Positions 14,637-39,250 are shown, numbered from the stretch's first letter. The stretch: DNA of 64,000 bases from a virus (IMGVR_UViG_3300037857_000053:7775-71774); one strand, 5' to 3'. Numbers and translations are program-made. Notes: generated from the sequence alone by a model not told the origin.

Positions 14637-14842
14637 GACGTTTCCCCAGATCCGCCAGTTTCAGGAGGACCCGAGCGCAGCCAGCAATCCACCGCGGCAG
14701 CCACAGGCCCTGGAACCTTGTTGGTGGTCACGTAGCGCCAGATTTGCGTCCTATTGACCCCAAGGTGCTTGGAAAGCGCGGACTGCCATCCGCGCTCCCC
14801 GAACAGGTCAATCCCTGCTTGTTTGAGTTCGTCACCGGTCAT
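14633..14842 (-). CDS. Small HTH (Cro-like) DNA-binding protein
   Basis: WQSALSKHLGVNRTQIWRY helix-turn-helix pattern. Confidence 0.75.
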   Translation of the reverse strand: MTGDELKQAGIDLFGERGWQSALSKHLGVNRTQIWRYVTTNKVPGPVAAAVDCWLRSGPPETGGSGETS

Positions 14843-16136
14843 TCTCGGTTTCCGTGATGAAACGGATCACAGCCTCGCTAAACCCGTTGATATGCGTCCA
14901 CTTCCCGTAGCCGACCCCGTTCTGGTAGCTGGCTACGTTGATCATGTACGCCTTCTCAGCCCGAGGATCTGGAACCCGGTCATGAGACTGCTCATCGGTG
15001 ATCACGATCAGCCGGTCACAAGGAACGCTCTCATTGATCCGCCGAACAGCGTTGCCAAGGTACGTGCCCATATGCGGCTGGGACCGGATGACAGCCTCAA
15101 CGCCAGCCATGCCCCGGCGGGCCGGAACCTCTCTGATCTCGTTGGAGAACGAGAAAACCCGAAGGTCTCCGTTGAGCACGGACGACAAAGCCGCAGCGGC
15201 ATCCAGGCGGGTCATGTCCGACTTGGCAGAAACATTGTCGTATTTCATGGATCCAGACACGTCCACCAGGACAACGGTCGTGCCCGACAGGCGCGGACCG
15301 GAGGCAATCGCCTCGCACAAGGCCTGATCAATCACCGGCTCCAGCTGCGGACAGGCCCGTGCGGCTGCCACATAGCTGAACGGGAACACCAGATCGGCCC
15401 CTTTGCGGGCAATGATCGCATCGCGAACCAGCTCCCGGTCACAGCCGGCCTCCATCATGCCGCGCAGATTGCGCAGCAAGGCCAGATAGCCCAGCTTGCC
15501 TTCCCGGATCAGCCGCTCGAAGGTTTCCTTCTTGTCGGCACCACCAGACAGCGATGTCTCCCAGGTGTCCGGCGTTGCCAGATCCTTATTGGCCAAACGC
15601 TTGAACAAGGCCGCCTGATCTTCATCCTTGGGCTTTGGGTGTGCCAGGAACAGAACATCCCGCAGCTTGATCGGACCCTCGCGGTCATACTTGGCCAGCT
15701 GGTACTCGGAGAACTTTCCAAGCGCCTTGCCAAGACCAACCTTCAGCTGTTTGGAGAGCGGCCGCTTTCCATCCTTCCAGTAAAGGGCCAGAAGCTCCGT
15801 GATCTCATCGGCGCGGCGGATGGTCTTGGTGATGGTGTCGGCCACACCCGGACCACCCCGGCGGATCTGATCGAGCAGCAGCATCAAGGGAGCATGGCGC
15901 AGCCCGTAAACGTTGCGAGCCTCGATCGCCAGCTCCTGGACATACTCGGGATCACACTTGGCAGCGGTCTCAAGGATTCGATCTGCAATGTCCTTGCCGT
16001 CCTCGTAGAAGGTTTTCTCCCAGAGCAAGCAAGACAGGACCGACCGGCGCAGGGCGGCTTCCGGGCTGATATGCCGGGCCGGACCCCCTTCATGGGTGCG
16101 CGGTCGAGAGATATTGGAGGCAGTGTTTAAACGCAT
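14832..16136 (-). CDS. rsr: Ro60/TROVE-domain RNA-binding protein with C-terminal vWA domain
   Basis: THEGG, FYEDG, AKYDR...KLRDVLFLAHPKP, TWET, YLALLRNLR and DVSGSM...VITDEQ motifs; start at MRLNT after GGGAG RBS (434 aa). Confidence 0.95.
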   Translation of the reverse strand: MRLNTASNISRPRTHEGGPARHISPEAALRRSVLSCLLWEKTFYEDGKDIADRILETAAKCDPEYVQELAIEARNVYGLRHAPLMLLLDQIRRGGPGVADTITKTIRRADEITELLALYWKDGKRPLSKQLKVGLGKALGKFSEYQLAKYDREGPIKLRDVLFLAHPKPKDEDQAALFKRLANKDLATPDTWETSLSGGADKKETFERLIREGKLGYLALLRNLRGMMEAGCDRELVRDAIIARKGADLVFPFSYVAAARACPQLEPVIDQALCEAIASGPRLSGTTVVLVDVSGSMKYDNVSAKSDMTRLDAAAALSSVLNGDLRVFSFSNEIREVPARRGMAGVEAVIRSQPHMGTYLGNAVRRINESVPCDRLIVITDEQSHDRVPDPRAEKAYMINVASYQNGVGYGKWTHINGFSEAVIRFITETENDR

Positions 16137-16155
16137 TCTCGGCTCCCTGGTTGAG

Positions 16156-16313
16156 CAAGCCATCTGGAGAATGCGGGAACAGTCGAAACCGGGTAGCCGT
16201 AACCACCACGGCGTAACCAGGGTTGATGGACCTGGGGGGCTTACAATCTGGTGACAGGAATCGAACCTGCGAAGTAACCGGATCCTAGCGCCACGCACTC
16301 GCCAGATGGCTTG
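16156..16313 (-). ncRNA. Y RNA candidate 1 (tRNA-like module with T arm)
   Basis: 12-bp terminal stem CAAGCCATCTGG/CCAGATGGCTTG; GTGGCGCTAGGATCCGGTTACTTC...CGACTGTTCCC core; GCAGG-TTCGATT-CCTGT T arm. Confidence 0.8.
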
Positions 16314-16334
16314 AGGGGTTAGCCGAACGGCGAA

Positions 16335-16474
16335 AACAGCAGAGGGGAACAATCGAACCCGGAACGTTGTGCTCTACCAACTGAGCTACCCTCCAAGTAG
16401 GAGGAGCAGGACTCGAACCTGCGACCAAACGATTACAAATCGAAGTAGCCGAACTCTACGCCACCTCTGCTGTT
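16335..16474 (-). ncRNA. yrlA: Y RNA candidate 2 (YrlA-type, circularly permuted tRNA domain)
   Basis: 11-bp terminal stem; core GTGGCGTAGAGTTCGGCTACTTC...CGATTGTTCCC; T arm GCAGG-TTCGAGT-CCTGC, loop-closed acceptor stem, then D arm GCTC-AGTTGGTA-GAGC. Confidence 0.88.
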
Positions 16475-24126: not shown

Positions 24127-24300
24127 TCAAGAGCCTTTCGAGTCGTTGCGCTTGAAGCCCTTCAGTTCCCCGTTCTCCACAATGGCCCTGGTCCCAGCCT
24201 TTACGACCTGCTTGCCCTCGGTGATCGTCCCATCCGGAAATTCGACCTGGAGCTTGTCGGAGGCTTTACCGACGAACCGGTCTCTGCTCGTTTCGCTCAT
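24127..24300 (-). CDS. 57-aa protein coupled to the MuF-ART gene (missing from the ORF track)
   Basis: MSETSRDRFVGKASDKLQVEFPDGTITEGKQVVKAGTRAIVENGELKGFKRNDSKGS; start overlaps the ART gene stop. Confidence 0.55.
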   Translation of the reverse strand: MSETSRDRFVGKASDKLQVEFPDGTITEGKQVVKAGTRAIVENGELKGFKRNDSKGS

Positions 24301-25985
24301 GGTGCGTCCTTCTTGATCACGTCCGTAAATGGCAAGATGTCCGCCTCAATCTCCCAAAAATCACCGTTGAAGTGAACCTTGGTGATTTTCTGGGCCGTGC
24401 CTGGTGGAAGGATAATCTCATCCTCGCGCAAGCTGCCCGCCATCGCAGGATGCCCCTTCTTGACCCGATACCGAAACACGGCCTGACCCGGCGCTCCGGA
24501 TTTTAAAAACATATCAGCGCCGTCCCGCAAGGTGGCGGTGGACAAGAAACCCTTGTCGCGGATGATCGCGCCCTTCAGGTCCGAGATCTCCATGGTCTGA
24601 TTGGGCAAGAGGCTGTGGATGCTTTGGTGCCCGCGATAAAGGTAGGCATCCGCTGGCATTCGGGCATCGCTCCGATCGAACATCTTTTGAAGGGTTTTAA
24701 TCTTCTTGATGTTTTCCGGGTCTATCGCCTTTTCGTAGCGCTTCGGGTCGATCTCCGGATCAACGCCGCGCAAGTACCCGTTCATCGACCGGTATCCAGG
24801 GCCGATGTAACGCTGGTGCGCAGCATGTTCTGGAGTGCCCTCTACGAGCATGGTTTCCGGGTTGAAGATACGGTCCTGGTCCACCAGGTTGCCCAAGGTA
24901 TTGTCTGAGACCGGTTTGAAATTGGTGATCGTGCCATAGACCCGCTCGACCTCCGGCTGCTTGGATACATACCGTCCAAGGCCCGCTTTTTGAAACGCGG
25001 CCCGGTTGGAGGTTGCCAGCTCGGCCAGGGTGATCTTGGTTCCATCCTTGGCGATGAACTTGTCCGCCTTCACGCCTTGCTGGAACAGCTTGAACCGGCT
25101 CGGGCCCAAAACACGCTCCTGCATGTCCGGATCCTGGCGCTCCAGCCAGTCCTTGTATTCAGGGATGTCCTCGCCGTCGTCCTCTTTCAACAGGCCGATG
25201 ATCGTGGACCGGCAGCTGGGGTGTGCAGGCGGGATCGGACCCTTGCCCGTCTGGTAAACGGACGCATGACGCCCCTGGCAGATCGGCGTGGTGCGCGAAT
25301 CCAGGATCGAGATCCACTGGTACTTCGGAAAGATGTCCTTGTTCCGGTCGATCGTCTCCATGTGAACCCGGTTAGTCACATGATTGACCGAGGTTCGCAC
25401 CACCATTTCAGCCCGGCCGCGCATCAGACCCAGCGTGGAGGATCCGTTGTTCTTGCCCATCAGACGCGCAATGATCTGGTCATGGCTCTCGCCTTCCGCC
25501 ATGCCGATATTGACCTGCCGGCGGATTTCGTTCTGGTGGCCGATTTCCAGCCCCTGGAACCAGTCTTTCAGATAACGCCCGTTCAAGGGCTCCGATTCAA
25601 TGATCTGGTTCAGCATCTTGGCATCGAGCAATTCCAGGTCGATCCCGCCGTCAATCCCAAGCTGACCCGCCTGGGCAGACAGGAAGTCGAGGGAAAACCC
25701 AGACTCAAAGCTGCCGATCTCCGCCAGAGCCTCATAGAGCTGATCATTGATCGCTGCGTGGGCCTCGGTGATCCCGCCATCCACCTTCTTGAGAAGACGC
25801 TCCAGAGCCTTGCGCTTGTTCGGCGTCATCCGGCCAGATGTTGGAAGGTTCTCCAGAAGCTGTGAGCGGACATCCCCGGCGACATCCTGCAACAGGGCAT
25901 GGATTTTCTTGATCTGCCCCTTGGAGAAAAGCTCGACCCCAACACGGTGCGAGATCAGCGTGTCAACGAGCTTCTGACTGGGCAT
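24297..25985 (-). CDS. MuF (SPP1 gp7-like) minor head protein fused to a C-terminal ADP-ribosyltransferase domain
   Basis: WISILDSRTTPIC and PPAHPSCRSTI (MuF); YRSMNGYLRG, LYRG, DKGFLSTA and REDEIILP (R-S-E ART). Confidence 0.9.
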   Translation of the reverse strand: MPSQKLVDTLISHRVGVELFSKGQIKKIHALLQDVAGDVRSQLLENLPTSGRMTPNKRKALERLLKKVDGGITEAHAAINDQLYEALAEIGSFESGFSLDFLSAQAGQLGIDGGIDLELLDAKMLNQIIESEPLNGRYLKDWFQGLEIGHQNEIRRQVNIGMAEGESHDQIIARLMGKNNGSSTLGLMRGRAEMVVRTSVNHVTNRVHMETIDRNKDIFPKYQWISILDSRTTPICQGRHASVYQTGKGPIPPAHPSCRSTIIGLLKEDDGEDIPEYKDWLERQDPDMQERVLGPSRFKLFQQGVKADKFIAKDGTKITLAELATSNRAAFQKAGLGRYVSKQPEVERVYGTITNFKPVSDNTLGNLVDQDRIFNPETMLVEGTPEHAAHQRYIGPGYRSMNGYLRGVDPEIDPKRYEKAIDPENIKKIKTLQKMFDRSDARMPADAYLYRGHQSIHSLLPNQTMEISDLKGAIIRDKGFLSTATLRDGADMFLKSGAPGQAVFRYRVKKGHPAMAGSLREDEIILPPGTAQKITKVHFNGDFWEIEADILPFTDVIKKDAP

Positions 25986-27470: not shown

Positions 27471-28970
27471 TTATCCGATCAGTTTGAACACGCCCCCCTC
27501 GCCTTGATGGAGGCAGTGAAATGCGCCCGATGCACCGTCCACCTGGTCGTCATGGGAGGCTTTCGGGAACATGGCGTGTTCCTCGATAAACTCCGCATTC
27601 CAGTCGGCGCGCTTCAAGATCACGTTCCCGGCCTTGACTTGGCCGGCGAAGGGATCGGCGCGATTGAACTTGGATCCAAGCTCGCCTTCTGGAGCCTTGC
27701 GGACCGTGTAGGGAGACAGGATTCGGGCATAGTGGTTGAAGGTAATCTTGCCGCCAGCGCCCGGATCCTGCGGGATCCACTGGGCACAGGCATAGCCGTC
27801 CATTTCAGCTGTCTGGCGTAAGCGCCGTTCCAGCTCGTGCGGCTCCTCGCGGAACCGGATCACGTTTTCGATCCAGTAAAGGCCATCTGGCGTCCGGCGC
27901 ATCTTGACCCCGACTGTCCAGTCCGGATCGTTGCCTTGACGCTCCTCGGTCCCCGCCAAATCCCAGCGGCGCAGAACTTCACCGTCTTGCGGGATCTCAT
28001 CGGCATAAAGCCACCAGGACCGATGGAACAGGCCGCCTTCGCGGGCGGTTGGGCGCTGTTGAAGCTGGCCGGAGGACCCGAACGGGCCATACTCGACCTC
28101 GCGTTCCTTCATCTTCTCGACCGAGTACCGATTGGGCCACAGGAGCTGATTGACGGTCTTGTCCCGGCGCGGATCCTTGAACCCGATCGAGGATTTGACT
28201 GGATGCGGGTGGTTCGGCTCATAAAAGGCCGGTAGGCACAGATGATCCCAGCCAGATTCCTTGGCCAGGATGTGCCCGGTCAGATCCTTCTCGTGAAGGC
28301 GCTGCATAATGACAATGAACGCGCCGTTTTCTGTGTCGTTCAAACGCCCCTTGATGGTCTCCGACCACATGGTAAGCGCATCCTCGCGGGATTTGTCGGT
28401 CATGTCCGCGGCTGGGTGCGGATCGTCCACGATGACGATGTCACCGCCCTCCCCAAGCATCCCTGAGGAGAAAGACCCGGTGTAACGCGCGCCGCCGGAC
28501 AGGTTCGAATACCGTCCACCGGCCTGCTCGTTCGGATCCAGCTGATAAACTTCGCCCCAGCGCTCCTGATACCAGGGCGACAGGATTAAGGCTTTGGTTT
28601 TCTTGGCGTCTCTCAGCGCCAAATTTCCACCGTGCGCGATAGAAAGGAACCTTGTTCCAGGCCCAAGCCAGGTGTCTGGAATAAAGGGCGTGTGCGATCC
28701 AGTCTTGTCCAATGAAGTCGTCTGACCCCACACCCAGGCGGGGAACATGATGTTGACGCCGATCGACTTCATGTGGCGCGGCGGGATGTTGATGATCAGC
28801 CTGGAGATCTGACGGCGGGCAATCGCCTCCAGATGGGCGCATATCGCCTCAATATGCCATCCGCCGACGAATTTCCCCGGCTCCACCACATGCCAGGCGC
28901 GCTGCGTGAAATCGTAAAGAGACTGCTCGCAGATCGCACGGTCAAGGAGCTGGGGAGACTGGATCTGCAT
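27471..28970 (-). CDS. terL: Terminase large subunit
   Basis: INIPPRHMKS, IVIVDDPH, VIMQRLHE, RRWDLA and HDDQVD motifs. Confidence 0.97.
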   Translation of the reverse strand: MQIQSPQLLDRAICEQSLYDFTQRAWHVVEPGKFVGGWHIEAICAHLEAIARRQISRLIINIPPRHMKSIGVNIMFPAWVWGQTTSLDKTGSHTPFIPDTWLGPGTRFLSIAHGGNLALRDAKKTKALILSPWYQERWGEVYQLDPNEQAGGRYSNLSGGARYTGSFSSGMLGEGGDIVIVDDPHPAADMTDKSREDALTMWSETIKGRLNDTENGAFIVIMQRLHEKDLTGHILAKESGWDHLCLPAFYEPNHPHPVKSSIGFKDPRRDKTVNQLLWPNRYSVEKMKEREVEYGPFGSSGQLQQRPTAREGGLFHRSWWLYADEIPQDGEVLRRWDLAGTEERQGNDPDWTVGVKMRRTPDGLYWIENVIRFREEPHELERRLRQTAEMDGYACAQWIPQDPGAGGKITFNHYARILSPYTVRKAPEGELGSKFNRADPFAGQVKAGNVILKRADWNAEFIEEHAMFPKASHDDQVDGASGAFHCLHQGEGGVFKLIG

Positions 28971-29370
28971 GGGCTTTCTTGGAAATCCGCTCCAGCTCCT
29001 TCAGATCCTCGACACTCAGGTTCTTCAGATCTGTGATGGTTTGAGTGATGTTTTCGACCTGCAACGGTTTCCCAGGTGCGGTCGAGACTTCCAGCTTGTC
29101 GTGCCAGCCCCGCGTCTTGCCCTTGCAGCGCAGGAAAAACTTGATCGCCTCCCGATCCCCGTCACGGATCAGCTCGATCAGCTTGAGTTCCGCCAAGTCC
29201 AGGATCTCGTCGGTGAAGGAATCGGCCGCAGCGCGCAGTTCCGGATCACCATTGACCCAGGTCGAAACCGTCTGCCTCGCAAAGCCGATTTTTTGCGCGG
29301 CCATAGAGATAATGCCGCCCGACGCCTTCAGCGCCTCGATGATGATCTTGTTGTCAGGCCGCTTTTTCAT
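28942..29370 (-). CDS. terS: Terminase small subunit (HTH)
   Basis: N-terminal HTH, AIKFFLRCKGK..GW; directly upstream of terL. Confidence 0.8.
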   Translation of the reverse strand: MKKRPDNKIIIEALKASGGIISMAAQKIGFARQTVSTWVNGDPELRAAADSFTDEILDLAELKLIELIRDGDREAIKFFLRCKGKTRGWHDKLEVSTAPGKPLQVENITQTITDLKNLSVEDLKELERISKKAHADPVSPAP

Positions 29371-30106
29371 CGGTCTTTCCCGCGTGAGTGTCAGCCTCGT
29401 CAGCGCCGGTCTCTTTCTCAATCTGATCGAGACGTTCGCTTGCCAGGTCGATCATGGCGCGCACTGCGAGGGCTTGGTTGACGATTTCTTTGGTGTCCTT
29501 TGTCCGGACCATTGTTTCGAAGAAGTCTTGGTAGTCCTTCATTCGAGCGAGGATGTGGGGTGTTTTTTCGATGCGTTTTTGCACCTCGTCCCACTTCTTT
29601 TGAAACTCGTCCTTGTCCTCTGGGAGGAAGGATAGGACCAGCTCCTCGTACTTCGGCATTCCGATTGAAAGCTTTTCGAAATCGGGGTCATCGAGGAGCT
29701 GCAGGTCTGTGTCTGTTATCCCTGAGTATTTCTTCTCCAGGACATCGAGGCTTTCATAGAGAGAGCGGAGGATGTTTTGGTCGTCTTCGCCTGTGATGGC
29801 GTTGTGAGCCAACTGGATGGCTGTTTGACGGGCTTGGGTCAGGTCTCCGTGGATCTGGATGACGTGGATCTTTTTCAAGCCAGCAGCAACGGCTGCTTTC
29901 ACCCGGTGATTGCCGGACAGAACCTTCAGCTTGTCCTGGACCTCATAGACCAAGGGCGCGGATGTCAGGCAGCCGTCGCGTTTGATGTTCTCGACCAACT
30001 GATGGAACTGGCGCTCGCGCATGTGACGGGCGTTGACCTCCAGAAGGTGGAGATCGCGAGGGTTGACCTCGATGGTGCTCGACTTGAGCGCTTCGTTATT
30101 TGCCAT
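29354..30106 (-). CDS. ParB/Srx-domain protein
   Basis: VNARHM, LVENIKRDG and VLSGNHRVKAA motifs. Confidence 0.85.
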   Translation of the reverse strand: MANNEALKSSTIEVNPRDLHLLEVNARHMRERQFHQLVENIKRDGCLTSAPLVYEVQDKLKVLSGNHRVKAAVAAGLKKIHVIQIHGDLTQARQTAIQLAHNAITGEDDQNILRSLYESLDVLEKKYSGITDTDLQLLDDPDFEKLSIGMPKYEELVLSFLPEDKDEFQKKWDEVQKRIEKTPHILARMKDYQDFFETMVRTKDTKEIVNQALAVRAMIDLASERLDQIEKETGADEADTHAGKTDEKAA

Positions 30107-31496
30107 AGCTGGTTTTGACCTCCCGGGCCCGATCGTCTTTGAAGTACCGCTTGAACCAATCCGCATAGATCTCTTGCGGGTGATCCTCGCGGACGGGCGC
30201 GTGGTAGTTGATGATGTAGCGGGATCCGGATCGTTCCGATTCATCGGCCTCCATCCGCTTCAGAACCTTGTAAGGTCCGCGGTATTTCATCGAGGCAGGT
30301 TGATTGGAACGCACGGTTGTGACGACACCCAGGGCCGGACGGCGCAGGAGCGTGTTCTCGCCAACGTGGATCACTTCCTTGCAGGTCGCCAGCATGGCCA
30401 GCAGCTTGGAAATCCGGCCGTAGCGGGTCGTGGCCGTATCGCTCAAAAGGTAAAGGTAATCGCCCTTGTTGTAGGGGCCGATGCCGTGCTTTGGCGGGGT
30501 GAAGGTCAAGATGCCGGCCAGCATGTCATCCAGATACACCAGGAAATTCAGCGGACCGGATGTCCATTGAATGGTCTCCTGCAGGTAGACCGACTTGATG
30601 TAATCGGCATAACCGGCCTTGCAGCGGCGGATCTCAACCTTGGTGTCTGCCGTGATCCGATCAATGTCCACCGGCTTGTAGCGGAAGGGAGTGACTGCTT
30701 CGGTGCTGGATTGATCAACCACCGACGATGCGGCTGTGTTGGAGTAGACGTAGAACCTCGGCTTCATGCCAATGCGGTGGTAGCAGGCCAGCTTGCCGGG
30801 GATGTTTTCGCGGTAAACCATCACATAGGGCACACCGGAGGCATCCACGCGCTCCATCAGCTCCGGGAAATCCCCTGGATTCCAGAGACGGTAATCGGCC
30901 TCCTCGTACTCCAGGTTCTCGGCAATGAAGCGGAACCACTTTTCATACCACCCCTCGATAAAGGGCGCGGAGACGATCACGCCGGATCCGTTGGCCATTC
31001 CGGTTTCCAGATGGTCCCGAAAATCCCCGTGATGGTAAGACGACAGGCGCAGCTCGGCGGCAAGCGCCAAAGCCCGGGAATAGGCCGTAGCGGCATAATC
31101 GAGCAGCCGTGTTTCGTAGTAGCGGAAATGACGGCGGTTGTACTCGTTGTCCGAGCCATAAAGACGGCCGGCGAACAAGGCCACCAGCATCGCGCCAACG
31201 CGAATGGAATAGGGCTGCCCCTCCAGGATTTTCTCCCAATGAGCCAGGCGGCCCTTGAAGGAAAACGGAACCTCCTGCTTCAAGGCCAAGCCTGCCAGGA
31301 CGCGGGACATCAGCGACACGTCATTGCCGTGCATGTCCAGCTGTGGCCAGCGTTTGCCGATGGCGCGTTCGAAGGTGAAGGTCCCCGAGCATCCGACATA
31401 GCAGCCGTTCCAGCTTGAGAAATCGACCGCCTTAAGGATTTGCATCATGCAAACAGGCGGGATCGCGCCGTTGAAGACTTCGTTTGACTGGAACAT
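30096..31496 (-). CDS. N6-adenine-methyltransferase-like domain fused to a Mom-like GNAT domain (DNA modification)
   Basis: Degenerate MTase motifs YVGCSG, GNDVS and VIVSAPF; C-terminal LVYLDDMLAGILTF, YLYLLSD...SKLL, VTT and SMKYRG pattern resembling Mom; start at MFQSN (466 aa). Confidence 0.65.
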   Translation of the reverse strand: MFQSNEVFNGAIPPVCMMQILKAVDFSSWNGCYVGCSGTFTFERAIGKRWPQLDMHGNDVSLMSRVLAGLALKQEVPFSFKGRLAHWEKILEGQPYSIRVGAMLVALFAGRLYGSDNEYNRRHFRYYETRLLDYAATAYSRALALAAELRLSSYHHGDFRDHLETGMANGSGVIVSAPFIEGWYEKWFRFIAENLEYEEADYRLWNPGDFPELMERVDASGVPYVMVYRENIPGKLACYHRIGMKPRFYVYSNTAASSVVDQSSTEAVTPFRYKPVDIDRITADTKVEIRRCKAGYADYIKSVYLQETIQWTSGPLNFLVYLDDMLAGILTFTPPKHGIGPYNKGDYLYLLSDTATTRYGRISKLLAMLATCKEVIHVGENTLLRRPALGVVTTVRSNQPASMKYRGPYKVLKRMEADESERSGSRYIINYHAPVREDHPQEIYADWFKRYFKDDRAREVKTSYGK

Positions 31497-31509
31497 GGGG
31501 ACCTGAATT

Positions 31510-31575
31510 TGGAGCGGGTTGAGGACTCGAACCTCCGACCTGAGTGGACCCCAGGCCGGTCCCATGACTTCCCGC
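31510..31575 (-). ncRNA. tRNA-Gly mimic 1 (66 nt, UCC at the anticodon position, encoded CCA)
   Basis: GCGGGAA GUC-AUGG-GAC CGGCCUGG-GGUCCAC-UCAGGUCG GAGG-UUCGAGU-CCUC AACCCGC U CCA. Confidence 0.85.
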
Positions 31576-31582
31576 ATGGTTG

Positions 31583-31648
31583 TGGAGCGGCTACCGGATT
31601 CGAACCAGCTCGGCAGGTGGTCCCCGCCGAGGCCCCAGGGCTCGCCGC
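31583..31648 (-). ncRNA. tRNA-Gly mimic 2 (66 nt, ACC at the anticodon position, encoded CCA)
   Basis: GCGGCGA GCC-CUGG-GGC CUCGGCGG-GGACCAC-CUGCCGAG CUGG-UUCGAAU-CCGG UAGCCGC U CCA. Confidence 0.85.
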
Positions 31649-31696
31649 AAGTTGTTGGAATTATTCGATATTTTACGGTTTTCTGTGACGCTTTTC

Positions 31697-31765
31697 CTGT
31701 ACCGCAGGGGGTTCATTTGATAGTGTAAAAAGAAAAAACACCCTCAAAATTCCTCAGCCACGGAG
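31697..31765 (+). promoter_or_regulatory. Promoter/leader cassette, copy 1
   Basis: CTGTAC-N18-TAGTGT-AAAAAGAAAAAACA...AGCCACGGAG; near copy at 33061-33128. Confidence 0.6.
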
Positions 31766-31772
31766 TTTGAAA

Positions 31773-32654
31773 ATGCTGAAACGAATCCCCCTTGATAAGA
31801 TCTTTGGCAACCCAGAGCAGCCGCGTAAGGACTTCGATCCAAAGGCGCTCCAAGAGCTTGCTCAGTCCATTGACCAAAACGGTTTGATGCAGCCCATCAC
31901 CGTTGTTCCGAAGGGCGAAGGCACCTTCATGATTGTTGCCGGTGAGCGGCGCTGGCGGGCGCATTGCCTGCTGCAGGAGCAAGGCAAGGCCCAGGACATC
32001 CTGGCTCACGTTCGCAAGATGAACGAGGATGAGGTTGCGGTGAACGCGATTGTCGAGAACCTGTCCCGCGCCGACATTTCCCCGCTGGAAGAAGCCCATG
32101 CGTTTCAAGCCATGCTCGATCGCGGTTACTCGGTTGAGGATCTGGCCAAGAAACTTGGCATCAGCCAGCCGCGCCGGATCTCCGATCGCACATCGCTCTT
32201 GAAGCTGGATGAAACGATCCTGCCGCTTGTGCGGTCCGGCGACATCTCGACCCATGAAGCAAACTGGATTGCCACCCTGCCCCACCACCAGCAGCGCGAT
32301 ATTGTCCGTTTGATCTCCTCCGGCAAAATCCGCGGCATCCAGGCGATCCGGGCGGCGGTTCAAGCCAAACAAGATGCTGAGGCTCAAAGCGCCCTGTTCG
32401 GGGATATGAGCGAGACATCCCCGGCAGATCTCCAGACCCTCAGCCGGATGGAGAAAAAAATCGAAAGCGTTGTCTCAATGGTCAGTGCCGGCTGGAAAGA
32501 CGGCGAGTGCGTGATTGCCGCCAAGGTTGACCGGAACCGGGCCGAGCAAATGGCTGACAAACTCAAGTTGGCCCAGCAGCACATTGCAAAGATGGAAAAG
32601 GCTCTGCGCGAGATCCACGCCCAGGCCGAGATCTTCTCCTCTGAAGCTGCCTGA
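31773..32654 (+). CDS. ParB/Spo0J-like protein
   Basis: NPEQPRKDFD, ELAQSI..NGLMQPITV, IVAGERRWRA and VENLSRADISPLEEA motifs. Confidence 0.92.
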   Translation: MLKRIPLDKIFGNPEQPRKDFDPKALQELAQSIDQNGLMQPITVVPKGEGTFMIVAGERRWRAHCLLQEQGKAQDILAHVRKMNEDEVAVNAIVENLSRADISPLEEAHAFQAMLDRGYSVEDLAKKLGISQPRRISDRTSLLKLDETILPLVRSGDISTHEANWIATLPHHQQRDIVRLISSGKIRGIQAIRAAVQAKQDAEAQSALFGDMSETSPADLQTLSRMEKKIESVVSMVSAGWKDGECVIAAKVDRNRAEQMADKLKLAQQHIAKMEKALREIHAQAEIFSSEAA

Positions 32655-37723: not shown

Positions 37724-39250
37724 ATGAACCAGATTATCGCACGAGCCACGGTGGAGGATATTGTCCGCCACCGGAACCAAGCCCTTGAGCTCTATTCGGA
37801 AGCTTTTGAGCAGATCCGGCTTGCCGACATCAAAATCAAAGAGGCCAAGCGTGTCGCCTCCCTCGCCTCCCCTGGCATCAACGGCTACAACTATTCCCAG
37901 GCCAAAGAGGTCGAAGCGTTTCATAAAGCCGTCGATCTCCCAGATGCCGATCAGTATATGCGGGTTGCCCGACGCTTGGTTGACATCAATGTCTGGTCCT
38001 ACGTCATCGAGCGGACCGACCTGGAACGCTTGATGGACAAAGAAGCCAAAGACAAATTGCACGAACAGTTCCGGTACGTGCCGGAGCGGACCGATCGCAA
38101 AGGCGAGATCATCAATCAAGACGAGATCGATAAGGGCATCCCGGAGGTCTCGGTTGAAAACATCCAGGCCACTGTTGAATCCTTCGCCCTTCAAGCGGAT
38201 GAAATCTTCAAACGCGGCATTGCGAATGCCTTTTCAAAACTGGACCGGCGGTTCAAGTCTCACGACGGCTTCAAGATCGGATCCCGGATCATCCTTCAGC
38301 GGGTGTTCGATGAATGGGGTCATATGTCCTATGCCTCCCGGATGCGGGACACGCTAATTGACGTCGAACGCGCCTTTACCATCGTGGACAAGGGTCTGAC
38401 CGATCACAGCTATACCGAAGCCATGCGGGCGCTTGAACATGACCGCAGAGGTTTCTCCGGAGCGCGTCAAAGCGAGATCGAAACCGAGTATTTCCTGATC
38501 CGGGGCTACAAGAACGGCAACGCTCACCTGTGGTTCAAACGCGATGACCTGGTTGAGAAGATCAACAAGATCCTGGCCGACTATTACGGCGAGGTCATTG
38601 CGGACGGCAATCAGGCCCAAGAAGATATCTTCGCCAACATCAAGACAACGCCTGCCCGGTTTTATGGATTCTATCCGACCCCGGAACCGGCCGCGGATTT
38701 TCTGTTTGACGGCCTACCTCTATACATCGGACGCGAGGACAAACCCTTGCGGATCATGGAACCCTCTGCTGGCACCGGCAACCTGGCACGGCGGCTTGTA
38801 AAGCGCCGAGAGGGCAGCGAATCCCAAGGGTGGGGCAAGGATCCGATCAAGTACACCTACCAGCACAAAGTGGACTGTGTTGAGATCCAACCGCATCTTG
38901 CCGATCAACTGGAGGCTCACGGGGCTTTCAATCGGGTCTACAAGTGCGATTTCCTCAGCCTTACGCCGGAGGATACCGGGCTTTATGACGTCATCGCCAT
39001 GAACCCACCGTTCGACCGGGAGCGCGACATTGACCACGTTGTCCACGCCTTCAAATTCCTGAAACCCGGTGGAACGCTGAAAGCCATCATGTCCGCCGGC
39101 ACCGAGTTCCGGGAAACCAAAAAGGCAAAGGCTTTCCGGGAGCTTGTCGAAGCCAATCGCGGCGAATGGCGGGATCTTCCCCCAGGGTCCTTTTCCGAAG
39201 TCGGGACCAACGTCAACACGTTGATCGTCAAAATGCGCAAGCCCGGCTAA
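37724..39250 (+). CDS. DUF4942-like domain fused to an N6-adenine DNA methyltransferase
   Basis: GFYPTP, MEPSAGTG, VDCVEI, DFL and AMNPPF motifs; N-terminal FKIGSRII...FKNGN.HL.F-type domain. Confidence 0.88.
   Translation: MNQIIARATVEDIVRHRNQALELYSEAFEQIRLADIKIKEAKRVASLASPGINGYNYSQAKEVEAFHKAVDLPDADQYMRVARRLVDINVWSYVIERTDLERLMDKEAKDKLHEQFRYVPERTDRKGEIINQDEIDKGIPEVSVENIQATVESFALQADEIFKRGIANAFSKLDRRFKSHDGFKIGSRIILQRVFDEWGHMSYASRMRDTLIDVERAFTIVDKGLTDHSYTEAMRALEHDRRGFSGARQSEIETEYFLIRGYKNGNAHLWFKRDDLVEKINKILADYYGEVIADGNQAQEDIFANIKTTPARFYGFYPTPEPAADFLFDGLPLYIGREDKPLRIMEPSAGTGNLARRLVKRREGSESQGWGKDPIKYTYQHKVDCVEIQPHLADQLEAHGAFNRVYKCDFLSLTPEDTGLYDVIAMNPPFDRERDIDHVVHAFKFLKPGGTLKAIMSAGTEFRETKKAKAFRELVEANRGEWRDLPPGSFSEVGTNVNTLIVKMRKPG

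Follow-up and report, generated by a model that had tools for sequence, protein, structure and literature searches.

The 64,000-nucleotide stretch of viral DNA analysed here (IMGVR_UViG_3300037857_000053:7775-71774; the whole stretch is called the window, and positions are counted from its first letter) is taken from a 71.8-kb provirus record of a pond metagenome. On its minus strand lie two 66-nt RNA genes derived from tRNA-Gly, the distal tl2 and the proximal tl1, followed by the gene of a 466-amino-acid protein, in which a domain resembling the DNA adenine methyltransferase Dam is fused to a GNAT-fold domain, and by genes for a ParB/Srx-like protein and for the small and large terminase subunits (Table 1). 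Together they probably form a tRNA-dependent adenine hypermodification module with private glycyl donors that would be excluded from the ribosome, an assignment made by analogy with Mom of phage Mu. Mom, which is expressed late, takes glycine from Gly-tRNAGly and places it on the N6 of deoxyadenosine (dA) in double-stranded DNA for the evasion of restriction, and the glycyl group rearranges to carbamoylmethyl (PMC13219725); the glycine transfer by Mom given in the original prediction, made from the window alone, agrees with this. Modification of DNA is proposed because the module combines a Dam-like domain, an acyltransferase fold and RNAs that keep what glycyl-tRNA synthetase (GlyRS) needs, and because Mom sets a precedent.

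The two RNAs have an identical minimum-free-energy fold, a reduced cloverleaf. Its acceptor stem consists of 5 bp (7 positions counting mismatches) and ends in the tail UCCA, while the D-arm position is taken by a mini hairpin of 3 bp with a 4-nt loop. The anticodon-side stem of 9 bp closes a 5-nt loop, GUCCA or GACCA, the variable region is absent, and the T stem of 4 bp carries the loop UUCGAGU or UUCGAAU. The same letter occurs in tl1 and tl2 at 41 of the 66 positions, and compensatory pair differences are found in all four helices. Both lack the features of a canonical elongator tRNA-Gly, namely recognition by standard finders, a 7-nt anticodon loop with U33 and a normal D arm. ARAGORN reports 0 tRNA genes in the whole 64-kb window, and Rfam yields for tl1 and tl2 just a sub-threshold match to tRNA-Sec (19 bits versus a threshold of 47). 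Remnants of attP or of another integration site were considered for the RNAs and rejected, as they are full-length, covary and occupy a place in the prophage where its early and late regions meet.

A covariance model built from tl1 and tl2 (R1) gave same-strand matches upstream of genes for homologs of the 466-amino-acid protein in IMG/VR loci, and a second model (R2) was built from 20 RNAs found with R1. The RNAs had been expected to recur upstream of homologous genes, and this expectation holds in part: R2 locates an RNA within 3 kb of the homolog in 35 of 81 IMG/VR loci and an RNA in 12 of 37 further IMG/VR records searched whole (47 of 81 records overall), as well as in 27 of 64 homolog loci from GTDB species genomes with 10-kb flanks, while at the other loci the RNA was undetected. 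Nearly all matches are on the strand of the gene, and 59 of them lie upstream of it, at a median distance of 867 nt (range 9 to 9640 nt). The linkage spans protein identities from 64% down to ~23% and extends across phyla, including actinophages. A rule-based scan that does not use a covariance model recovers the same elements and almost nothing else in ~3.8 Mb, both strands counted.

The pairing is well preserved in the 20 RNA members: 93% of cells are paired, compared with 63% when shuffled and 42-50% in slid registers, and double-sided changes number 113, compared with 34 when shuffled, a value reached by 0 of 500 shuffles. The recurrence next to homologs and this strong covariation indicate an RNA family beyond chance. 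In a complete Devosia genome of 6.5 Mb there is a single strong R2 match (65.9 bits), positioned 1 kb upstream of the fusion gene, and matches of 74-75 nt, the length of ordinary tRNA genes, score 32-38 bits. A survey of 151 genomes from the Devosia order, counting the starting one, yielded a single further R2-positive genome; the RNA occurs in 2 genomes, the gene in 2 and both in the starting genome alone, which leaves too few positives for a 2x2 test.

Standard tools see little of this family. About 12 of its RNAs are visible to ARAGORN, several of them with 6-nt loops that are given as two-base "anticodons", and 9 of the 29 tRNA calls made by ARAGORN in homolog loci are Gly. When tRNA-like elements of whatever identity were sought with strict criteria, only ordinary tRNAs (Arg, Glu) and few of the reduced RNAs were obtained. 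For the open reading frames (ORFs) between the RNA and the fusion gene in loci L028 and L061, Pfam gives no family. In five loci (L083, L086, L087, L089 and L095) a tRNA-Met(cat) is located ~70-230 nt from the tRNA-Gly-like RNA. Ordinary tRNA-Arg or tRNA-Leu genes occur 2.5-5.8 kb upstream, on the gene's strand, at L066:356-431, L119:599-674, L151:4532-4608, L155:4523-4609 and L157:4160-4236; these loci have divergent homologs of Rodentibacter and Desulfovibrionaceae types, and the tRNAs could be alternative donors or simply integration-site tRNAs.

The determinants recognized by bacterial GlyRS are G1:C72, C2:G71, U73, C35 and C36, together with a preference for purine4:pyrimidine69 (PMC10464925). 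In a comparison of 62 distinct RNA sequences, G1 is present in 61, and C2, G3, C70, G71, C72, U73 and C74 in all 62 each. C35 is found in 61 and C36 in 62, position 34 being U or A, position 4 is a purine in 58 and position 69 is C in 57, and the 3' end is completed by C75 in 58 and by A76 in 53. All other stem positions vary and covary. Both RNAs of the window carry the full bacterial GlyRS identity set, G3:C70 included. The base before the triplet (position 33) is U in just 28 of the 62, the loop with the NCC triplet is predicted to have 5 nt in 35 of 61, the stems are mostly of 7-9 bp, and the lengths are mostly 64-70 nt. The RNAs form a continuum from a near-canonical tRNA-Gly(UCC) to the reduced 66-nt form of this window. 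The description of tl1 and tl2 as tRNA-Gly mimics, given in the original prediction, is thereby upheld: they are real, conserved and derived from tRNA-Gly, with the GlyRS identity elements kept and the decoding features lost.

Cultured phages have homologs as well: when 50,697 phage records were searched with tblastn, distant ones (21-25% identity) turned up in phages of Gordonia, Mycobacterium and Faecalibacterium. The homolog in Mycobacterium phage Jeon, gp68, is directly adjoined by an annotated tRNA-Gly(tcc), and gp69, which comes next, matches the ParB-like protein in tblastn. Gordonia phage Clawz (NC_071004.1) has an unannotated tRNA-Gly-like element at L159:7835-7907 (+), 115 nt upstream of gp29 in a gap of 218 nt, with a perfect 7-bp acceptor stem (GCGCGAC/GUCGCGC), U73, CCA and a hairpin bearing UCC. 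This element is missed by both ARAGORN and R2, and R2 therefore misses divergent forms of the RNA. Faecalibacterium phage FP_Brigit (MG711465.1) shows the same synteny of homolog, ParB-like nuclease, terS and terL.

The fusion protein belongs to a large family: 1.84 billion proteins contain, at E<=1e-3, 1,427 representatives clustered at 50% identity, most of them of 430-470 amino acids, and the prophages that carry members range from those of Alphaproteobacteria to those of Actinobacteria and Firmicutes. In PHROGs the protein corresponds to phrog_7858. An AlphaFold model of the whole protein has a predicted local distance difference test (pLDDT) score of 86, and Foldseek matches its N-terminal half to Dam and its C-terminal half to many GNATs. 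The matches of the N-terminal half include the E. coli Dam structures 4rts and 2g1p, and also 2ore, which establishes the Dam fold. The degenerate adenine methyltransferase motifs that had been noted from the sequence (YVGCSG, NDVS, and SAPF replacing DPPY) are indeed present. Across 28 homologs the first position of motif IV is S, F, Y or A, and P178 alone is invariant; the motif reads SAPF here and FPPF, SPPT, YPPT or ASPP in relatives, and the signature (D/N/S)PP(Y/F/W) is lacking. Since motif IV is devoid of the catalytic D/N, N6 has no residue to activate it for the transfer of a methyl group, while the aromatic platform for a flipped base remains, and the replacement of DPPY makes canonical methyl transfer unlikely. 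The motif I- and II-like positions S37, G38, N58, D59 and V60 are invariant or nearly so.

Some relatives differ in architecture. P0152, P0172 and P0197, of ~700 amino acids, contain an insertion of ~250 amino acids inside the Dam-like domain, and P0241 (609 amino acids) has instead a C-terminal domain that is restriction-endonuclease-like (REase-like)/DUF559. A phmmer search of the PDB sequences gives no match for the 466-amino-acid protein, and NCBIfam none for the fusion protein. PADLOC reports just a chance-level match to DrmA and no defence-related family for these proteins. Full-text literature searches returned no paper that deals with PF22555 or PF22559, or with tRNA-like RNAs of phages as donors in the modification of DNA.

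The GNAT half, when folded alone, is predicted with a pLDDT of 91. Foldseek matches it to 118 PDB GNAT chains at E<=1e-3, with acetyl-CoA enzymes such as RimI at the top and Mom (8bv8_B) at rank 14 (E 1.6e-4). In an exhaustive alignment against 48,161 PDB representatives, 92 of which reach Z>=8, Mom 8bv8_B is at rank 2 with Z 11.0 (root-mean-square deviation 3.3, 146 aligned residues); it ties with the rank-1 match (134 aligned residues, Z 11.1), rows 3 and 4 differ from it by no more than 1 Z unit, and the Mom alignment is among the longest of the top matches. The invariant residues of this half are K364, T393, S402 and the SMKYR motif. The domain is a GNAT that resembles Mom about as well as it resembles anything solved, and is not a member of the Mom family. 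Of the Mom-like GNAT postulated earlier, the fold and the place of Mom among the best structural matches are retained, while a relationship to the Mom family by sequence or profile is not.

The ParB-like gene is a constant companion of the fusion gene. A tblastn survey of all fetched loci found it adjacent in 144 of 146, and in 133 loci it is immediately downstream, often overlapping. The ParB-like protein is better conserved than the enzyme, with the motifs NAR, LSGNHR, QLSHNA, YSGLTD and FLPED. It matches ParB-like families in PHROGs (E 1e-16 to 1e-7, and phrog_7405 at E 4e-67), and its match to PF02195 (E 8e-4) is below the gathering score, with GNHR in place of GERR. The predicted complex of the fusion protein with the ParB-like protein scores 0.23 versus a mark of 0.32, which speaks neither for nor against binding.

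In the proposed mechanism, the tRNA-Gly-derived RNAs, one or, as here, two, would be transcribed as the first part of the packaging operon and undergo a tRNA-type maturation, CCA being already encoded. Host GlyRS would charge them because the full identity set is kept, and they would stay out of translation because the anticodon loop, the D arm and the variable region are no longer tRNA-like. The Dam-like domain would bind DNA and flip out an adenine, and the GNAT domain, like Mom, would transfer the glycyl group that the charged RNA carries at its 3' end to the adenine N6, the likely product being N6-carbamoylmethyl-dA or a related glycine adduct. The ParB/Srx-like protein, presumed to be an obligate partner, may help the enzyme to load on or move along DNA. 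As the module adjoins terS and terL, the modification may take place before or during packaging and protect the DNA from host restriction.

Several observations weigh against this mechanism or narrow it. In ~40% of the homolog loci no RNA is detected, many of these loci being fragments or perhaps having RNAs that are too divergent; a Mesorhizobium genome with the gene has just 74-nt matches, of the size of ordinary tRNAs and far from the gene, and in one genome with a divergent fusion gene the RNA is not detected. Conversely, a bacterial chromosome contains an orphan RNA of 50.8 bits with an ACC loop, L167:9996-10063 (-) (G172:C7:190395-190462), flanked by the copper-resistance gene copB and a DUF6692 gene; phage genes are absent within 10 kb of it, and the genome has no fusion gene at E<=1e-10. 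The uniform glycine identity is partly circular, since Gly-type features went into the construction of both searches. GlyRS depends on the overall L-shape of its substrate (PMC10464925), and a 3-bp D arm may or may not provide it. The invariant S37, G38, N58 and D59 suggest that a pocket for a nucleotide or for S-adenosylmethionine (AdoMet) may still be in use. For the GNAT half, Pfam gives PF22559 and not PF25680, the only family matched by Mom itself, and hhalign finds no significant similarity (E 0.3) between the homolog alignment and an alignment of 26 Mom sequences. Comparison with the single Mom sequence gives E 0.71, a test of low power that E. coli Dam fails likewise. An acyl-CoA donor is thus conceivable from the structural models, in which the similarity to Mom ties with that to ordinary acetyl-CoA GNATs. 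In FP_Brigit, the element 160 nt upstream of the homolog, itself preceded by a small gene, is an unannotated tRNA-Lys(ctt) (L169:5237-5313 (+)). It suggests that the donor amino acid may differ between clades, so that glycine is the rule in this clade and not a law of the family.

It is unlikely that the RNA serves the enzyme as substrate, scaffold or regulator and not as donor. Under such an explanation the charged RNA or its adenosines would be modified, glycine would be elaborated on the RNA and then used elsewhere, or the tRNA-like leader would serve the packaging operon as a sensor or as a signal for RNase P processing or for stability. This would suit the position of the RNA here and in ~8 other loci, where it lies 9-32 nt before the start codon with no terminator between and would therefore be part of the primary transcript of the operon. 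It would also agree with the existence of GNATs that act on aminoacyl-tRNA, such as TacT (PMC13219725), and with the invariant cofactor-pocket residues of the Dam-like domain, which could bind an RNA adenosine. At most loci, however, the RNA is 0.5-10 kb away with genes between, which does not fit a cis-acting leader, and the conservation is centred on GlyRS determinants that a processing signal would not need, while DNA is suggested by the Dam fold, by the neighbouring ParB and terminase genes and by the REase-like domain of one relative. It is rather improbable that an ordinary enzyme using AdoMet and/or acyl-CoA methylates or acetylates DNA or a protein and that the tRNA-Gly-like genes only travel with it, for example at an insertion hot spot between early and late genes. 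The acetyl-CoA enzymes at the top of the Foldseek matches, the conserved motif I/II-like residues, the loci devoid of RNA and the label "putative antirestriction adenine methyltransferase", which one source attaches to a homolog, would be expected from such an enzyme; the loss of the motif IV signature, with its unconserved first position, and the persistence of the linkage at low protein identity and across phyla would not. Moreover, the linked RNA is of Gly type in 62 of 62 model matches, in addition to the Gly share of the ARAGORN calls, which a generic hot spot would not give.

That the RNAs are working, if odd, tRNA-Gly genes that aid the translation of late genes is very unlikely. The acceptor stem, T arm, CCA and NCC triplet are kept, a near-canonical tRNA-Gly(UCC) occupies the same place in some relatives, and a tRNA-Met stands beside the RNA in several. 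The predicted 5-nt loop on a stem of 8-9 bp, the unconserved U33 and the frequent A at position 34 are nevertheless difficult to reconcile with decoding, as are the 3-bp D arm, the missing variable region, the rejection by ARAGORN and by the Rfam tRNA model, and the two-base "anticodons" of those relatives that ARAGORN does see. Phage tRNAs are known as tools of counter-defence, and RNAs that keep identity elements and have lost decoding could be decoys for a host defence aimed at tRNA-Gly, for instance an anticodon nuclease or a Gly-tRNA-acetylating toxin of the GNAT type. This explanation is the least probable of those considered, as a decoy leaves the strand-specific linkage to the Dam-like/GNAT and ParB-like pair unexplained, and PADLOC places these proteins in no defence family. 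Use of the RNAs as glycyl donors for DNA modification is accordingly the reading that is retained as probable.

Components of the proposed donor module can be compared with several known systems. Mom of phage Mu (PF25680; PDB 8bv8; Silva et al. 2026, Nat Commun, PMC13219725) is likewise a phage GNAT fold, but it is a stand-alone dimer with a helix-turn-helix-like insertion and the catalytic residues R111, S124, D149 and R151, and it uses the host tRNA-Gly, no dedicated RNA having been described. Its authors suggest that recognition is mainly of the 3' acceptor end of the tRNA, and neither tRNA-like genes nor fusions nor methyltransferase domains figure in their paper (PMC13219725). The present GNAT, by contrast, is joined to a Dam-like domain, has a ParB-like partner and is accompanied by its own reduced tRNA-Gly-like RNAs, and no sequence or profile homology is detectable between the two. 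A dedicated tRNA-Gly is known from Staphylococcus aureus, where non-proteogenic tRNAGly charged by the normal GlyRS is diverted from the ribosome to the FemXAB transferases (PMC7826273). The tRNAs of S. aureus are cellular and of full size, show modest sequence idiosyncrasies and serve peptidoglycan synthesis, whereas the RNAs described here are phage-encoded and reduced and presumably have DNA as their acceptor. The Dam enzymes of E. coli and T4 (2g1p, 4rts) share with the N-terminal half the fold, the motif I-like GxSG, the motif II-like ND and a proline-aromatic pair at motif IV, whereas here DPPY is replaced and the domain is fused to a GNAT. In the 7-deazaguanine system DpdA-DpdB, too, an enzyme that modifies DNA bases stands beside a ParB-like NTPase partner (PMC10164549). 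DpdA, however, has the tRNA-guanine transglycosylase (TGT) fold and performs base exchange, and the ParB-like protein of the present module belongs to a distinct family, phrog_7405. DpdB reportedly has an ATPase role.

Mom was shown only in 2023-2026 to use a charged tRNA on DNA and has been presented as a single enzyme drawing on host tRNA, while the family described here is a different and much larger one, which has the genomic signature of Mom chemistry and its own donor RNA, which Mom lacks. If the proposed function is correct, tRNA-dependent DNA modification would be a general phage strategy, a natural minimal GlyRS substrate orthogonal to the ribosome would be at hand, a class of small RNA genes missed by standard annotation would be exposed, and two Pfam domains and two PHROGs lacking functional annotation (phrog_7858 and phrog_7405) would receive a function. 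The window contributes the most reduced form of the RNA and a tandem pair at the 5' end of the operon; the RNA family concerned has at least 50 members and escapes the standard tools. The cultured carriers Jeon, Clawz and FP_Brigit make the hypothesis directly testable. More tentatively, these RNAs may represent a phage class of minimal "donor RNA", in which tRNA-Gly derivatives retain no more than GlyRS, RNase P and the transferase require, escape tRNA finders and the ribosome, and serve solely to bring activated glycine to a Dam-derived/GNAT enzyme that marks DNA adenine with an amino acid, while other tRNAs and amino acids are used in sister clades, as Lys might be in FP_Brigit. In such a class the AdoMet pocket of the Dam-like domain would possibly be re-used for the aminoacyl-adenosine end of the RNA, and the enzymes would constitute a widespread DNA aminoacylation family (>1000 clusters) distinct from Mom.

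All genes of the module are encoded on the minus strand, where the order from 5' to 3' is promoter match, tl2, a 7-nt spacer, tl1, 13 nt, the ATG at 31496, the fusion gene, the ParB-like gene, the terS-like gene and terL (Table 1). The candidate promoter, with 11 nt separating the end of its -10 hexamer from the start of tl2, is the sole promoter-like site in 31300-32000, where 0.2 is expected by shuffling. The final A of the tl1 CCA is at 31510, and the 13-nt gap that had been reported between it and the ATG, the 466-amino-acid ORF and the overlapping succession of ParB-like, terS and terL genes all agree with the coordinates obtained here. A longer alternative frame of the fusion ORF opens at ATG 31577, directly 5' of tl1; the start at 31496 is preferred because it is supported by the alignment with 27 homologs and by an identical database entry of 466 amino acids. 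Beyond terL are a portal gene and then a MuF-type head gene. The one RNA run with a small word share contains contigs of relatives over conserved coding parts only, and none of them extends over 31274-31715.

Table 1. Features of the putative modification module and its surroundings in the window.
Feature	Position	Strand	Basis or description
Sigma-70-like promoter candidate	31660..31689	-	Consensus match: GTCACA, 18-nt spacer, AATAAT
tl2, distal 66-nt tRNA-Gly-derived RNA	31583..31648	-	Loop GACCA (ACC = positions 34-36), discriminator U, CCA encoded; R2 76.3 bits
tl1, proximal 66-nt tRNA-Gly-derived RNA	31510..31575	-	Loop GUCCA (UCC = positions 34-36), discriminator U, CCA encoded; R2 69.6 bits
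Gene of the 466-aa two-domain enzyme, stop codon included	30096..31496	-	Identical 466-aa database protein; homolog alignment
Dam-like domain, residues 17-263	30708..31448	-	PF22555 DAM-like-phage1, E 1.4e-33; motif I-like GCSG, N58-D59-V60, SAPF for DPPY
GNAT-fold domain, residues 284-451	30144..30647	-	PF22559 GNAT-phage-like, E 1.2e-32
ParB/Srx-like partner, ~250 aa	29354..30106	-	Probable start ATG 30106, ORF open from 30244; phrog_7405 E 4e-67
Small-terminase-like gene (terS), overlaps ParB-like gene	28942..29421	-	phrog_4044 terminase small subunit, E 3.7e-4; synteny in relatives and FP_Brigit
Large terminase gene (terL), overlaps terS	27471..28970	-	PF17289 Terminase_6C, E 5e-11
Canonical ParB (ParB_N + HTH_ParB), divergent from the same intergenic region	31767..32654	+	PF02195 E 2e-24; PF17762 E 2e-11

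Three further genes of the window are of interest in their own right. A Ro60-like phage protein is encoded at 14832-16349 (-), with a TROVE domain (E 3.6e-11) and a VWA-like region; beside its gene, where Y-RNA-like elements had been suspected from the sequence, R2 and ARAGORN give no match. At 24297-25982 (-) a MuF-type minor head protein is fused to a domain of the ADP-ribosyltransferase exoenzyme type (PF04233 + PF03496), and the early region contains, at 37724-39247 (+), the gene of a DUF4942 protein of 508 amino acids.

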